Below, piece after piece: positions 22,001-28,000 of a stretch of 32,000 nt of DNA. Source of the stretch: Xanthomonas campestris pv. campestris str. ATCC 33913. Lineage in GTDB: Bacteria > Pseudomonadota > Gammaproteobacteria > Xanthomonadales > Xanthomonadaceae. Made by a program: the position numbers. How positions within the stretch are numbered: position 1 is the stretch's first letter; the number at the start of each line of letters is the position of its first letter. The stretch is taken from contig NC_003902.1 in NCBI RefSeq assembly GCF_000007145.1, positions 667,436-699,435 on the forward strand, given 5' to 3'.

Positions 22001-25000
22001 CCGGCGTGGCGCAGCGGCGGCGCTTGAACGTGGACTACTTCATCGAGCTGGGGCGTGGCGCCTATGCGGAGGTGGCCGACACGCGCTGCAGCGATGCCAG
22101 TCTGTTCGCGCAACTGGCCGGCAGCTATCGCGAGCTGGTACGCACACTGGCCGCGTTGCGGTCGCCACGTGCCTGGCAGGAAGGTGCACACGGCATTCTG
22201 CACGCCTGATCCATCACGCCCGCCAGGGGACGTCCCGACAGCGGCGTGGGGACGGCCCTGACTGCCAAACGCCTCGCGCCGGCCCACACTATCCCTGCAG
22301 ACTTGATCCGCCGGGCGACGTCACGTTGTCTTCAACGGATCAATCCTGTGCCATCGACCGCCGCACAGATGTGCGGTGCTGTCTTGCCGCACTGCGTGGG
22401 GGCGCGCAGTGCGGCCCTCATTCCCGTGGAAAGGACTCTCATGAACGTGTTGATTGCCGCACTGCTGTGTGCGCTCGCTGGTACCGCCGTGGCGCAGGAC
22501 ATTCCGCCAGGCTATGCCGGTCAGGGCGGGATGACGCTGCAGGACATCGACCCGGCCATCTACGCGTATCACTACGACCATGGATTCACCGGCGAAGATG
22601 CCATGGGCTGGGATCCGTCGTTGCAGTTCGCCTGGTCGCGTCTGGCCGCCGCCAAGGTGTGTGCGCAGCAACCGGTCACCGATGCGGTGATCGCCAAGCT
22701 GGTCGAGCAGTATGGGCAGTCGGCCGACGTGCATCAGATCAACGGCATCACCTTCCATGAGGCGCAGATGCGTGCCGCTGGCACGTTCTGTACGCCTGCG
22801 CGCAGTGCAGATGCCACCGCAGTGGTGCCCGCCTTTGTGGCGGGTGATTTTTCGCAGGCAACCGCCTACGCCGCGGCAGCCACTGCCGGTACGTTGGTTG
22901 TAGCTGCGGCAGAAGGCCATACGGCTGGCGCCGCGCTGTCCGATACCGAGATGGCCTTGGCGCCCTCGGCAGACTGGGCCCTGCAACTGCCGTTGCATGC
23001 GCAGCTGAGCGTAGGTTCCAACGGCCAACCCAACGGCGACGAGATGTTGCGCGTGGTGCGGCGTGGGCATACCGGCGCACTGGTGGGCGTGCAAATTGCC
23101 ACCAATCTGTTGACCCTGAAATATGGCGGAGCCGGTGCGTCCATATTCAATAAAAGCCAGCTCAAAGGCGAAAAGATCAAGGACATCGGCAACCCGGGCT
23201 ATGTTCTGCAGCGCGATGCCGTCAATACGCATCTGAAGCGTTATTTCACCGGGCATCCGGCGGCCATTCCGGTCGAACCGTTTCCGCTGCAGGTCGTGAT
23301 GTCCGACTGGCTGCTGGTCTATCAGAGCCTGGGCGACGAAAAGTCGCCTTATGAGCTGCGTTATGCCGTGAGCATCGGTGGGGAACGCAGCGGCTTGCTC
23401 AAGCGCAAGGCCAGCCCGGTGAACCTGAACTGCCAACCGACCCCGCGCACCGCCTCATTAGAGGAGTGGGAGGCCAACAACTACGCGTTGGTCAAACAGA
23501 CCGCGCAAGCCTACGCCGACGAGTGCGCAGCCAAGTTTGCCGAACGCCTGCCGCAATGGTTTCCGGACACCGCGACGGTTGCGGCGTCGAACTAGCCAAC
23601 GTAGTAATCGGGATCGTGCGTATCCACCGCAGAACGCGCCATAGGCAGGCTACAGGGCGTGGCTGGCTCGGCGAGCGGTCGCGCGGTTCATCTAGGCGCT
23701 TCCACACCACCGACTAGAGCGCAGGGCTTTGTAGTTGCGCCACTTAGAGCAGCTATCAAAACTACTGCGCAGCCGTCAGGCGGACGCGGCCGGTGCTCGG
23801 AATCCTCATGTACCCACGTACACTCCGGTTCCTCCGCGCCGTCCGCACCCACCTGACGACTGCTCGCTACGTTTTGTTAGCCGCTCTTAGCAAAATGGGC
23901 GTAAGCCTATTCGGCCCACGCCCATTCTGTTTTGCACAATCAAGAACAGAGCTATTAAACAGCCGCGCGTGACTGAGTACGCTGTTGTTCTTGCTGGTCC
24001 TGTACCTGCAGAGTTTGCAGGGATTGTGCTTCCTGGCGAACCGCGTTGCTGCTTTGTTCTAATGGGCGCTCTGCAGCGGCTGCCTTATCCGTGTAGATCC
24101 GCTGGTGCGCGGGGTCGCTTGGCTGACCCTGTACCGCGAACAGTCCACTGCCGTCCTTGCTCTGCATCACCGCGTCGATGCGCTGCAGGCCGCTGACCTT
24201 GGCTTCGAACGCCAATGAGCCAGCCGCATTTTCCAATGCGCGACGGTCGGTGAATGCAGTCGGACCCAACTGTTCCAGCTTGCTCACGGCCTGGTTGTAC
24301 AACGGATTATCGGGGTTGGTTTTTTCCGACAGCAATGGCGTCTTCTCGGCCTGCTTCAGCGCCTTGAGCGTATCGCCGCCAACGACGCCATCTTCCTGCA
24401 GTCCGTGTGCACGCTGAAACGCCTTGACCGCCTCACCTGTTCGCTGGCCGTAGGCGCCGTCGGCGTTGAGCTCATTGCCCTTTGCGTCCTTGTAGCCCAA
24501 CTGCTGCAAGGTCTGTTGCAACTTCAGAACCTCAGCGCCATGCGCCTTCTCGCGCAGCAAGCCGGATGTTTCTGCAGCCGTTTGCGCATGCGCCGGTTTA
24601 TGCGTGTTGCCGTCGTGAGACTGCTGCTTGCTCTGACTGCGGTCCTGCAGCAACTCGCGCGCCTCGAATAGCGGGTCGCTGGCATAGAGCTTGACGCCCT
24701 TGGCGTGCTTGCGTTCAAGATAGGTATCCAGCGAGCTGAGCTCGACGCCTTCACTACCACGCGACTGGCTGATCTTGAGTTCGCCATGCTTGGGGTCGCG
24801 CACCACCATGGTGATGTGGTCTATGCCCTTGTAGCGCCCCTTGTCCCAACTCTGGGGGCCATTGTCCTCGCCAATGATCATGCCCTCTTTGAGGTTATGG
24901 GCAGTGACGTCTTTGCCTTGGATCAGGACGCCAGAGCGTTGTTCGGCCTTGCGCAGCAGTTCTGATGCACTGTCGAAACCAGGGCTGAACTTTTCGTCCT

Positions 25001-28000
25001 TGGTGAAGATGGCCTTGCCAGCGCCCTTGTTGATTTCACCCATGGTCGCGTTCTGCATCTCGACCACCCAGCCAGAACAATCGACCTTGCCTTTGTCCGG
25101 ATCCTTTGCTCCCAGGCCGTACTTGACGTGGTCGTATTTGTTGGTGAGGTCATAGGCGGCATGGAGCGCGATGCCGTGCGCTGCAGCTTTCTCCGGCTGT
25201 GCAGGTGCGGACTGCGATGGCGCAGCTTGCGACGGCGCCTGCTGCGTGGCCGAAACGGGCTCAATACCTTTTTCAGGGATACGGATACGGTCCATCTTCG
25301 TATCCCAGTACTGCACGAACGTCTGTGCCATGTCCTTGTCCGACATGCGCTGGAACGTCGCCGCATCCACGCCCGTCAAAGACTTCAGTTCTTTTTCGCC
25401 GACATTGTTGAGGATGTTGGCGCGCGTGCTCTCAAGCCCGAAAGATCCAGTGGCGATTGCGGTCTGAAGAGAGCGGTAACCGCCAGCGCCCTGCTGATGG
25501 GCCATGTACATGTCCAGGCCATCAGGCGCCGGTTTGCCCGACAGATACGGCCGGCCATCGCGTTCGTGCCGGTCAACCAGGCTCGTCCGGTTATCCAGAT
25601 ATAGCCGCGCTGCTGCATCGGTATTGACCACTGCGTCCAACTCACGTCCAGCGATGCCGTATTGCTCGGCGGTCCGAGGAGTGAACTGAAAGAGCCCCTT
25701 CGCACCAGCGGCTCCGCGACTGGCCAACTCGTCGAAGTTGCCGCCAGTCTCTACGTGGGCAAAGCGCATGAAGTCGTCAAGCGGAATATTCCGCTCGGTT
25801 GCTTCGCGTTCGATGATGTCGAGCACTTGGGCTCGTGAGTAGTTCGTCGGCATCGCTCAAGGTCCTTGATTGAGTGCTGCAGCCACGTGGCTGCAGCGGT
25901 ACGCCGCCCGAACCAATTCCTTTGGTTCTGTATTAAGGGGCCGGCAAATACGATTTCTGGGCCGCATCGTAGCGGTATTCAACCGTTTCGTCACCCCCGC
26001 TCGTCGGCGGGTCAGCCGAAACAGTTACCCGTAGTGCTGGCAGGCCTTGTTGCTGGACAAACGCAAGCGTGCTGCTGTTCTTGACGCAAGGAATCTTCCC
26101 AGGCGCATCCTCGCCGCAATTTGCACTGTTGTCCTCCCCGGCCGGGATATTGCCGATATACGTCCAATGCTTGTCGTTGACGTCATCGGTTTCCTTCGGG
26201 TTGAACACGAGTGCCTCGTAGGAAAGGATCCGTACGCCCGACTGCAGGCTCCACGTCGGCACGGTCAGGACCAGTCGGCCGTCGTCGGTGACAAGTGTCT
26301 GTGGCTTACGTGTCGTGTCGACGGTGTTGCCTTGTTCCATTCCACCGAATTCGCCGATATAGGGCTCTGCGCCAAGAAGCTTCCATGGCGACTTGCTACC
26401 CGGCTCGCTGGTGACGAAGGTGGCGTGTGCCAAGGTCACCTTGGTGCCCGGCGCGGGATAGTGGTTTTCGCGCTCTGCACCGAAGAGCTCGGGCGTTTCC
26501 CATGCGAAGCCGGTGTAATAACGTGTACCGCCAAGTTCGAACTGAAAGCCGTACCAGTAATTAATCCAGCTGCCGTTGGCCACCTCGTAGGAAAGGGCAC
26601 CGTCGCCATCCACATTGCTGATGAAGTACAGCACGCTGTCCGGACGGGGCGGCTGTAGTTGCTGGGTGGATCCCTGGGTTGCGTCCTGCATGGGAGAAGC
26701 ATCCTTATCTGAAGGCTTTGTGGCGGTACTGGCTGCGTGGGGAGTCGCCTTTGAAGCCGCGGCATCCGGTGGCGACGGCTTGCATGCGGCGATCGTTGCT
26801 AGCGCGAGGATCAGCGGGATCTTCCTGACGAGCATTGGGGTGCATCCATTGCGGAGGGCGCGGAAAGTCTACTCCAGCCCGGCTGCCTGTCCAGCCGCCG
26901 AACCATGCCCGGCGCGGCGGCTGGACAGGGCCTTTCCTGCCCCTTGTTTCAACGTCTGCAACCGTGCGGTGTGGCATGTCTGCAACCGATCACTGCCAGC
27001 GACAGGACAGCCGCCGGCAAAACGCCTGCGCGCTTATGCCAGCGGCGTGTTCGAGATGATCTCCACCCAGTAGCCGTCCGGGTCCTTGATGAAGGCCAGG
27101 TGCTTCATGCGGCCGTCTTCCAGGCGTTTCTGGTACGGCACGCCGAGGCTGTCGAAGCGTGCGCAGGCGGCGTGGATGTCCGGCACCGAGATGCAGATGT
27201 GGCCGAAGCCGCGTGGGTCGCTGTTGCCGTCGTGGTAGACCGCACCGTCCTGGGTTTCGGTGCCGTGGTTGTGGGTGAGCTCGAGCACGCCGGGGATGCC
27301 GGCCATCCACAGGCGGCGTGCGGCGTCATCGTCGGGCACTGCAGTGCCTTCGGGCAGCAGCGCGAGGAAATACAGGCTGAATTTTGCTTCGGCGAAGTCG
27401 CGTGCATCGAGCAGGCGGAAGCCGAGTACGCGGGTGTAGAAGTCCAGCGAACGCGGGGCGTCCTTGACGCGCAGCATGGTGTGGTTGAACACGAATCCCT
27501 GGGTGTCTGCCGGTGCGGCCGTGGCGCCGGGGACGTGTTGCAGGTCGGTCAAGGGCATGGGGCTCTCCTGAGAAGGATGGGGGGAGGCAGCGGTGCTGCA
27601 GTGACTGTCATGGTACTGGGCAGGCAGTGGCGGGGATGTCTGTTTTCATTGCTGGCTGCGCGCTGGATTTTCGGCAGAAGCTAAGGGCACAGGCAGGTAG
27701 AGACCGAGGCCACAGTCACGTGCGGCCCAAAGCCGGATCCGAAGTCGAAGCTACACACCCACACCCATACCTACGGGCACAGCCACCGCCAAAACCACAG
27801 CAAGCGCAGGGCCAAAAGCCAAAGCCAGAGCCAGAGCCAGAGAGCTAGAGACAGAGCCAGAGAGACAGAGCTAGAACCAGAGCCGGAGCCGGAGCCGGAG
27901 CCAAAGCCAACGCCAACGCCAACGCCAACGCCAAAGCCAACGCCAAAGCCAACGCCAAAGCCAAAGCCAAAGCCAAAGCCAAGCAGAGGCTGGCCATGAG

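Follow-up and report, generated by a model that had tools for sequence, protein, structure and literature searches.

A conserved NlpC/P60-like module in the Xanthomonas campestris ortholog of the X-Tfe XAC3634/X-Tfi XAC3633 effector–immunity pair

We analysed a 32,000-nucleotide stretch of Xanthomonas campestris pv. campestris str. ATCC 33913 (contig NC_003902.1, positions 667,436 to 699,435; hereafter the window), whose minus strand carries two co-oriented open reading frames (ORFs), of 300 and then 632 residues, with a gap of 79 nt between them. A first-pass annotation made from the sequence alone had placed both ORFs at exactly the positions given below and had proposed that they form a toxin/immunity pair served by a type IV secretion system (T4SS). 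The 632-residue effector (X-Tfe, or Tfe) starts MPTNYSRAQVLDIIEREATERN and, as had been claimed and can be read directly from the sequence, has neither a hydrophobic leader nor a signal peptide. The 300-residue immunity protein (X-Tfi, or Tfi) starts MLVRKIPLILALATIAAC, a signal peptide that, read from the sequence, ends at the lipobox cysteine, Cys18. The genes and their predicted parts are as follows.

25933..26835, minus strand: X-Tfi immunity gene, 300 residues (ORF; X. citri XAC3633 ortholog)
26782..26835, minus strand: lipoprotein signal peptide with lipobox I-A-A-C18, residues 1-18 (from the translation)
26689..26691, minus strand: internal Met49 codon, the NCBI start (252-residue form without the signal), preceded by AAGGAT
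23955..25853, minus strand: X-Tfe effector gene, 632 residues (ORF; exact protein WP_194734183.1; X. citri XAC3634 ortholog)
25284..25853, minus strand: SLT, a lysozyme-like lytic transglycosylase domain, residues 1-~190, catalytic E35 (motifs, fold matches, E35Q in the ortholog)
24639..25181, minus strand: NlpC/P60-like module of predicted papain fold, residues ~225-405, C259/H346/Q363 (AlphaFold2 (AF2), Foldseek, profile, conservation)
24357..24539, minus strand: PG_binding_1 domain (PGB), residues 439-499 (PF01471, E=4e-18; PDB matches)
23958..24332, minus strand: XVIPCD secretion signal with Gln-rich tail, residues ~508-632 (PF20410, 7mu9)

An exact-sequence look-up in RefSeq returned the 632-residue protein as WP_194734183.1, "XVIPCD domain-containing protein [Xanthomonas campestris]", on 130 contigs, and effector homologs with 97-99% identity occur in X. 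campestris pv. campestris, raphani and incanae. In X. citri 306 (AE008923.1) the effector has a counterpart with 86% identity over 630 residues (L002:7974-9866), and the immunity protein one with 88% identity over 300/300 residues and no gap (L002:6992-7894). Gene order is equal in the two genomes (CopA, CopB, glyoxalase, the 300-residue Tfi, Tfe, a 379-residue ORF, a 157-residue ORF and GlmS), and in at least 18 Xanthomonas species the pair is found at this chromosomal site with its neighbours unchanged. Judged by sequence and synteny, the pair is the X. campestris ortholog of X-Tfe XAC3634/X-Tfi XAC3633. The two pairs share protein lengths (630-632 and 300 residues), a 79-nt spacer that is 97.5% identical, the flanks, E35, the XVIPCD residues discussed below and the NlpC/P60-like module. 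They differ in the spacer downstream of the effector, which is 359 nt long with an sX9 repeat in the window and 127 nt long in X. citri.

For the X. citri ortholog, peptidoglycan hydrolysis and its dependence on E35, inhibition by the Tfi and XVIPCD-dependent contact killing are established (PMC8740702). Since that pair has been characterised experimentally, both biochemically and in killing assays, the toxin/immunity pair itself is already known; it is part of an antibacterial T4SS that has been studied extensively, and as a discovery it carries little weight. The novelty suggested in the first-pass annotation is reduced accordingly, the ortholog being characterised and the protein annotated as XVIPCD in RefSeq, and survives in an NlpC/P60-like module outside the published domain map and in a Tfi with no fold relative detectable by sequence. 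That annotation was mistaken in supposing an effector of this kind to be uncharacterised, and X-Tfes that combine a glycosidase with a peptidase have already been catalogued (PMC6536674, Fig. 5 legend). The additions made here are modest: an NlpC/P60-like module, the finding that the Tfi follows the SLT domain, and a correction to the public annotation of the immunity gene.

The XVIPCD-like C-terminus proposed at first pass was checked against profile and structure. Pfam XVIPCD (PF20410) matches residues 511-606 with E=1.1e-27 (97 bits versus a cut-off of 24.9), PDB entry 7mu9, the XVIPCD of X-Tfe XAC2609, matches residues 508-606 with E=5e-27, and the modelled domain retrieves 7mu9 and 7r6s in Foldseek; a Gln-rich tail, QTLQVQDQQEQQRTQ, is read directly from the sequence. 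The predicted PG_binding_1 repeat was likewise recovered, at residues 439-499 (PF01471, E=4e-18). Published mutants of XAC3634 show what the XVIPCD contributes: P514A/D515A and D560A partly lower killing, F572A/V574A and D580A/P581A leave it at ~10% of wild type, and no killing is left once the last nine residues are deleted (PMC8740702). Oka et al. 2022 (PMC8740702) also characterised, for the X. citri pair, a lysis of E. coli on contact that requires the XVIPCD. Residues P514, D515, D560, F572, D580 and P581 are invariant or nearly so among 28 sequences including the window protein. By analogy, the window effector would be expected to bind VirD4 and to be transferred in a T4SS-dependent manner; the X. 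euvesicatoria ortholog XCV3751 bound VirD4 (PMC10432156). The strong XVIPCD, the upstream lipoprotein and the orthology and synteny with the validated XAC3634/XAC3633 pair thus uphold the T4SS effector/immunity interpretation.

In a Pfam scan of the whole protein, only PG_binding_1 was matched among the three cell-wall modules named at first pass, SLT and NLPC_P60 both remaining below threshold. For SLT, the scores are 14.8 bits with the whole protein and 17.1 bits with the domain alone, against a cut-off of 21.3 bits, with a similar outcome in NCBIfam; for NLPC_P60 (PF00877), the match has E=0.11 and 13 bits versus a curated threshold of 23. Because both domains missed the Pfam and NCBIfam thresholds, we turned to profile and structure methods.

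For the N-terminal domain, these methods agree. An alignment of 28 homologs shows E35/T36/G37/G38, G53-L54-x-Q56-F57 and A118-H119-Q120-Q121-G122 to be invariant, and same-family effectors of other genera exceed the Pfam SLT cut-off with 24.5-28.3 bits. The full-length AF2 model, built from 28 close homologs, reached a pLDDT of 64 (37-70 in the middle module, below 50 around residues 35-61) and was used only for fold matching of the N-domain and the XVIPCD. With it, Foldseek matched the N-domain to phi6 lysin, MltF, phiKZ gp144 and MltE with probabilities of 0.97-1.0, at E-values of only 0.03-0.1. PHROG matches of the effector comprise a lytic tail protein, an internal virion protein with an endolysin domain and transglycosylase families. 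Purified X-Tfe XAC3634(1-513) clears Micrococcus luteus cell walls, and with E35Q this clearing is lost (Oka et al. 2022, PNAS; PMC8740702). Motifs, relatives, fold, PHROGs and the published mutant together secure the SLT assignment, and the E35 singled out at first pass is the very residue mutated in the ortholog.

The published domain map of XAC3634 consists of SLT, PGB and XVIPCD and leaves out residues ~225-405 (PMC8740702). A literature search pairing X-Tfe with NlpC turned up nothing beyond a generic list of domains (Sgro et al. 2019), and in the literature searched the NlpC/P60-like module of this effector is neither annotated nor assayed. An exhaustive search with residues 225-420 yielded 362 representative proteins. 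In an alignment of 37 sequences reaching down to ~30% identity, Cys259 and His346 are invariant and the third position is of Q/E/H type only; the consensus reads (I/V)DCSGWV ... LKEGMxIGxD ... GIDHI ... (S/T)(Q/E/H)S. Compared with the PDB, the family profile aligns its DCSG motif on the catalytic-Cys motif of MepS/Spr (E=5e-4). Individually, 25 of the 37 members hit PF00877 (below threshold, best 1.5e-5), and 8 hit the related C92 family.

A separate AF2 model of the middle module, from a deep alignment, has a pLDDT of 93.6 and a pTM of 0.88. In this model C259 opens a long helix (35-54) and H346 opens a beta-strand (122-128; domain numbering). At the level of secondary structure, the predicted arrangement is that of a papain-like fold, with a Cys at the N-terminus of a helix, a His starting a strand and a third polar residue. 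Foldseek against the PDB retrieved SagA (6b8c, E=1.6e-4, TM-score 0.63 on the target, probability 1.0), MepS (8xup, ~2e-4) and then YjcM and LPG0564, while the viral library BFVD gave a phage hydrolase (E=2e-12, root-mean-square deviation 2.6 A), with NlpC/P60, CHAP and tape-measure proteins ranking next. We therefore find support for a module that is NlpC/P60-like at the level of the predicted fold, and from which peptidase activity may be inferred; the high-confidence model, the fold matches and the invariant Cys/His bear out the first-pass call with C259 and H346. The module resembles MepS/Spr of E. coli and SagA of Enterococcus in its papain-like fold, the D-C-S-G cysteine at a helix N-terminus and the histidine at a strand start. 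However, it is only 15-19% identical to them, carries an extra helical insertion of ~60 residues, reaches query-normalised TM-scores of 0.36-0.42 and stays below the Pfam cut-off.

To place the module in context, one genome per species was surveyed, and the ORFs of 75 loci with the Tfi family were searched with one profile per module. The loci belong to Xanthomonas, Pseudoxanthomonas, Stenotrophomonas, Lysobacter, Luteimonas, Marilutibacter and Solilutibacter, and 72 of the 75 have an SLT-bearing effector gene directly downstream in the same orientation. The architectures next to the Tfi are as follows.

61 loci: SLT–NlpC/P60-like–PGB–XVIPCD
6 loci: SLT–NlpC/P60-like–PGB, XVIPCD not reaching threshold (a contig end cuts one of them)
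5 loci: Peptidase_M23 in place of the NlpC/P60-like hit
1 locus: SLT only (effector cut by a contig end)
2 loci: no effector (one contig end, one true orphan, that of S. koreensis, L072)

The NlpC/P60-like module is thus found in 67 loci and M23 in 5. The M23 swap (L039, L040, L067, L069 and L073, from Luteimonas, Pseudoxanthomonas and a Stenotrophomonas metagenome-assembled genome) leaves the SLT domain and the upstream Tfi in place. Pfam M23 was matched with E=1e-26 to 3e-30 in the three loci scanned (L039, L073, L067), to which L040 and L069 align. These variants, among them Luteimonas panaciterrae (L039), L. aquatica (L040) and Pseudoxanthomonas LjRoot168 (L073), have a homologous SLT, the same Tfi family and PGB, with XVIPCD in 3 of 5; they differ in carrying Peptidase_M23 (E~3e-30) in place of the NlpC/P60-like module and in the order SLT-PGB-M23. 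A peptide-cleaving module thus appears to be kept while its type can be exchanged. Because the Tfi stays with the SLT domain when the type of peptidase changes, in agreement with the inhibition seen in vitro, we infer that it probably targets SLT rather than the peptidase module.

The module also occurs outside this family. It is found in phage tape-measure proteins (P0165, P0192) and at the C-termini of VgrG3-like spikes of type VI secretion systems (T6SS; P0160, P0178, P0180), with homology at E 1e-22 to 1e-36, as well as beside SLT domains in giant proteins (P0153, P0155). From T4SS effectors to T6SS VgrG spikes and phage tape-measure proteins its Cys-His pair does not vary, and the module is a reusable envelope-breaching part. 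Similar combinations are known from ICEBs1 CwlT and pCF10 PrgK, bifunctional glycosidase and peptidase wall hydrolases of envelope-crossing machines. The pairing of glycan and peptide cleavage is shared with CwlT, PrgK, phage tape-measure and T6SS VgrG3-like proteins; whereas those proteins serve the passage of their own machine or other delivery systems, the domains here belong to a cargo toxin addressed by an XVIPCD. A closer comparison is X-Tfe XAC2609/X-Tfi XAC2610 (GH19, PGB and XVIPCD; 7mu9), which has in common the secretion signal, PG_binding_1 and the operon logic of an upstream lipoprotein inhibitor, but has GH19 instead of SLT, no peptidase module and an unrelated immunity protein.

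As to the immunity protein, the co-oriented lipoprotein with Cys18 that the first-pass annotation had seen 79 nt upstream is confirmed by the lipobox I-A-A-C18, and an A-A-C lipobox is present in most of 36 aligned Tfi homologs. Purified X-Tfi XAC3633(40-300) inhibits its effector in vitro (PMC8740702). By analogy, and in line with its co-inheritance with SLT, the window Tfi would bind and inhibit its own effector. Sequence and profile searches of Pfam, NCBIfam, PHROGs and the PDB found no match for the Tfi family. One source labels one homolog as 'DKNYY family', a label we could not reproduce, Pfam DKNYY being hit in 0 of 36 members.

The members of the NCBI cluster all start at Met49, are 252 residues long and are named 'hypothetical protein', and the 300-residue form is found only in JGI/IMG. 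Public annotation thus shortens the immunity gene such that the lipoprotein signal is lost. The 300-residue lipoprotein is the form treated as the Tfi by Oka et al. (PMC8740702), while alternative downstream starts have been proposed for X-Tfis generally (Sgro et al. 2019; PMC6536674); a second, cytosolic Tfi isoform from Met49 is conceivable. X-Tfis have been assigned a role mainly against cis-intoxication, and the DUF4189 protein XAC2611 has been reported to block fratricide (PMC10933484; bioRxiv 10.64898/2026.05.09.723464).

We propose the following mechanism. The effector would be made in the cytoplasm without a signal peptide, and its XVIPCD would be recognised by VirD4 of a chromosomal Xanthomonadales-type T4SS (X-T4SS) encoded elsewhere, with contact-dependent injection into neighbouring Gram-negative cells. 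In the target periplasm, PG_binding_1 would anchor the protein to the sacculus, SLT, with E35 as general acid, would cut the glycan strands, and the Cys-His module (C259/H346/Q363) may cut stem peptides or cross-links, the attack on both glycan and peptide leading to lysis. In the periplasm of the producer, the 300-residue lipoprotein, of outer-membrane type, would bind and inhibit the effector, mainly against leakage (cis-intoxication). We hold with high confidence that the locus is a bicistronic X-T4SS effector/immunity operon that works in this way. This proposal builds on the orthology, the domain folds, the conserved catalytic and secretion residues and the Tfi–SLT co-inheritance observed here; three of its elements go beyond these observations, namely (I) that the NlpC/P60-like module is active, (II) that this strain has a functional T4SS, and (III) that the Tfi acts on SLT and not on the peptidase.

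Five points weigh against this proposal. (I) E35Q alone abolished the clearing of M. luteus, although XAC3634(1-513) contains the module (PMC8740702). (II) As stated at first pass, there are no virB/virD4 genes among the ORFs of the 32-kb window, and the presence of a T4SS rests on the species literature. (III) That literature reports X-T4SS loci in X. campestris pv. campestris B100, 8004 and ATCC33913 and in pv. raphani 756C, yet describes the vir locus as fragmented in pv. campestris 8004 and ATCC33913 (PMC6536674). (IV) A literature search for X-T4SS killing assays in X. campestris found none. (V) Secretion of XCV3751 continued in a T4SS double mutant (PMC10432156). Because of this last result, an XVIPCD is insufficient proof of exclusive export by the T4SS.

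The first point concerns the middle module. The peptide chemistry of M. luteus peptidoglycan is atypical and of the Lys type. Because this chemistry may hide a peptidase specific for peptides of the diaminopimelic acid (DAP) type, the M. luteus assay may be blind to such an enzyme, and the E35Q result would then be neutral on a second activity, arguing neither way. We tentatively propose that effectors of the XAC3634 family are two-enzyme toxins, in which the module is an active DAP-type peptidase that helps to kill Gram-negative prey and was missed by the M. luteus assay. Since the Tfi follows SLT even where M23 takes the place of the module, the peptidase would then either have no immunity protein of its own or be held in check indirectly, for instance by steric hindrance from the same Tfi. 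If true, this would be an unusual toxin–immunity arrangement for an interbacterial effector. The published domain map misses this conserved, confidently modelled module, and killing may rest on two enzymatic activities instead of one.

Alternatively, the module may not be a second enzyme and may instead be a catalytically silent scaffold or substrate-binding domain, with all toxicity coming from SLT. We consider this rather unlikely. It would account for the loss of clearing by XAC3634(1-513) with E35Q alone, for the unreached Pfam NLPC_P60 threshold and for a Tfi family that tracks SLT and not the peptidase module. A silent domain, however, sits poorly with a Cys and a His kept in every one of 37 sequences whose identity falls to ~30%, together with a third position of Q/E/H type, and with a predicted placement of the Cys (N-terminus of a helix) and the His (start of a strand) that matches active papain-fold enzymes. 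Moreover, the module is swapped for an M23 peptidase in 5 loci and not lost, which points to selection for a peptide-cleaving function, and the published assay is possibly blind for the reason given above.

A second alternative, that the pair is a relic whose T4SS is absent, fragmented or silent and whose genes persist through a useful immunity gene or slow decay, appears very improbable. The fragmented vir locus of two pv. campestris reference strains speaks for it, as do an in-frame deletion of ~90 residues in the effector of some pv. campestris strains (P0060) and the orphan Tfi genes of S. koreensis (L072) and P. viridiflava. By contrast, the window effector is full length with all catalytic and secretion residues intact, the identical protein is present on 130 contigs, the operon spacer and promoter-proximal region are conserved, and X-T4SS loci are on record for B100 and raphani 756C. 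That the effector is instead an autolysin (secreted without the T4SS, or housekeeping) or a lysin of phage origin, with an incidental XVIPCD, is hardly credible: the unchanged secretion of XCV3751 in the T4SS double mutant, the phage tail and tape-measure relatives of the SLT and NlpC/P60-like modules and a GC content (overall and at third codon positions, GC3) low for the region would fit, but the protein lacks a signal peptide, killing by the ortholog falls away with XVIPCD point mutations and the last-nine-residue deletion, the dedicated upstream inhibitor lipoprotein is kept in 72 of 75 loci, and no phage genes lie nearby in a chromosomal synteny conserved across the genus.

Some loci depart from the common arrangement. 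In the pv. campestris strains with the deletion (P0060/P0061), the effector is 99% identical elsewhere and lacks, in frame, ~90 residues (window residues ~148-238). The deletion takes out the end of SLT, the linker and, from the NlpC/P60-like module, its first helix ('RANI|YDHV'), all intact in the window copy, and may reflect effector decay in part of the species. Five effectors with SLT, NlpC/P60-like and PGB domains give no XVIPCD hit at threshold (L031, L032, L033, L038 and L054, from Luteimonas notoginsengisoli, Marilutibacter spp., Lysobacter sp. M2-1 and Solilutibacter pythonis); they may end in an XVIPCD that has diverged or in another export signal. Two tandem Tfi paralogs lie upstream of the effector in L044, L052, L062, L066, L071 and L076 (X. 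bonasiae, X. translucens, X. campestris pv. asclepiadis, the second locus of X. floridensis and others), and X. floridensis has two separate Tfi-Tfe loci (L019, L076).

Orphan Tfi homologs, 55-58% identical, are also found in plant-associated Pseudomonas, namely P. viridiflava CP077722.1 (L004 8001-8867), L005 and Pseudomonas sp. Irchel 3A5 (P0288). No ORF with SLT, NlpC/P60-like, PGB or XVIPCD lies within +/-8 kb of them, and their neighbours are ABC permease genes. Two DUF4189 genes, of the XAC2611 family, lie 6-8 kb upstream. These orphan genes may represent acquired protection against attack by Xanthomonas.

The operon is accompanied by three candidate signals.

26866..26929, minus strand: promoter-like site TGGACA-16-TAGACT with a perfect 15-nt inverted repeat (consensus match only)
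25854..25932, minus strand: Tfi-Tfe spacer, 79 nt, with a 22-nt perfect palindrome at 25876-25897
23891..23929, minus strand: terminator-like hairpin 26 nt past the effector stop codon, its 17-bp stem lying between an A- and a U-tract

TGGACA-16-TAGACT is the only promoter-like site upstream of the operon. The arms of the inverted repeat, CCTGTCCAGCCGCCG and CGGCGGCTGGACAGG (26886-26900 and 26915-26929), enclose a 14-nt loop and overlap the -35-like hexamer; the repeat may act as an operator or as a terminator for the glyoxalase gene. In the spacer, the palindrome GCTGCAGCCACGTGGCTGCAGC can form a GC-rich hairpin of 9 bp, and the spacer folds with a free energy (dG) of -41.6 kcal/mol (z=-3.0). 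The spacer is 95-100% identical over 15 Xanthomonas species, whereas the flanking coding DNA is 78-94% identical, with a third-codon-position identity to X. citri of 0.68-0.73. Its sequences are almost invariant, with variation confined to the hairpin loop, and it could be an RNA element that sets the immunity:toxin ratio or a protein-binding site. The terminator expected at the end of the cassette is present as the 17-bp hairpin (dG -38.6 kcal/mol, z=-5.9; 0 of 200 shuffles as stable), which a strict terminator scan missed, the hairpin having only 4 U; it is possibly bidirectional.

The low GC of the pair, first estimated by hand, is confirmed: at 0.593, against 0.647 in the rest, it is the lowest 2.9-kb stretch of the window (mean 0.640, standard deviation 0.021). 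Similarly, GC3 is 0.69-0.70 in the pair and 0.84-0.86 in glmS, the glyoxalase gene and copA. Origin as a recent island, which low GC might suggest, is ruled out by the shared site and neighbours in at least 18 Xanthomonas species; given the low GC3, an old acquisition is possible.

Downstream of the pair, three further features lie on the opposite strand.

23743..23891, plus strand: dispersed repeat of ~150 nt ('MITE-like'), with an sX9 match at 23808-23882 (Rfam RF02228)
22246-23595, plus strand: convergent ORF, 449 residues (379 in other annotations), with an internal signal-peptide-like start MNVLIAALLCALAGTAVAQ
21682-22209, plus strand: convergent ORF, 157-175 residues (conserved ORF)

The element called MITE-like (resembling a miniature inverted-repeat transposable element) at first pass is a real dispersed repeat beside the hairpin, with imperfect 39-nt inverted arms, and it matches the small-RNA family sX9. 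Further copies lie at 8435-8583 (96.6% identical) and, inverted, at 5023-5134 (81%), and copies occur at non-syntenic sites in other Xanthomonas loci. Rfam sX9 (RF02228; gathering score 44) scores 96.8 bits at 23808-23882 and 87.9 bits at 8500-8574, both on the plus strand, and X. citri lacks the insertion at this site. Because sX9 lies inside a repeat that is present at least three times in the window and at non-syntenic sites elsewhere, it behaves, by its distribution, like a mobile or repetitive element. One sX9 copy lies ~170 nt from an insertion sequence (IS) transposase gene (8750-9775).

Both convergent ORFs are kept at this site across 18 Xanthomonas loci, and neither has a Pfam or NCBIfam match. 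As parts of the pair they were rejected, since they do not lie beside it in the other genera surveyed (one 175-residue match, Pseudoxanthomonas L025). The other genes of the window encode ATP synthase subunits, GlmU, the IS transposase, a two-component system, a MacB-type transporter, GlmS, glyoxalase, CopB and CopA. Between the glyoxalase gene and copB lies a hexanucleotide array, AAAGCC x 27 (80% matches), at 27815-27982. A 138-nt tandem duplication at 28873-29131 lies inside the His/Met-rich copB ORF, and CopB has 364 residues in X. citri versus 551 in the longest ORF of the window.

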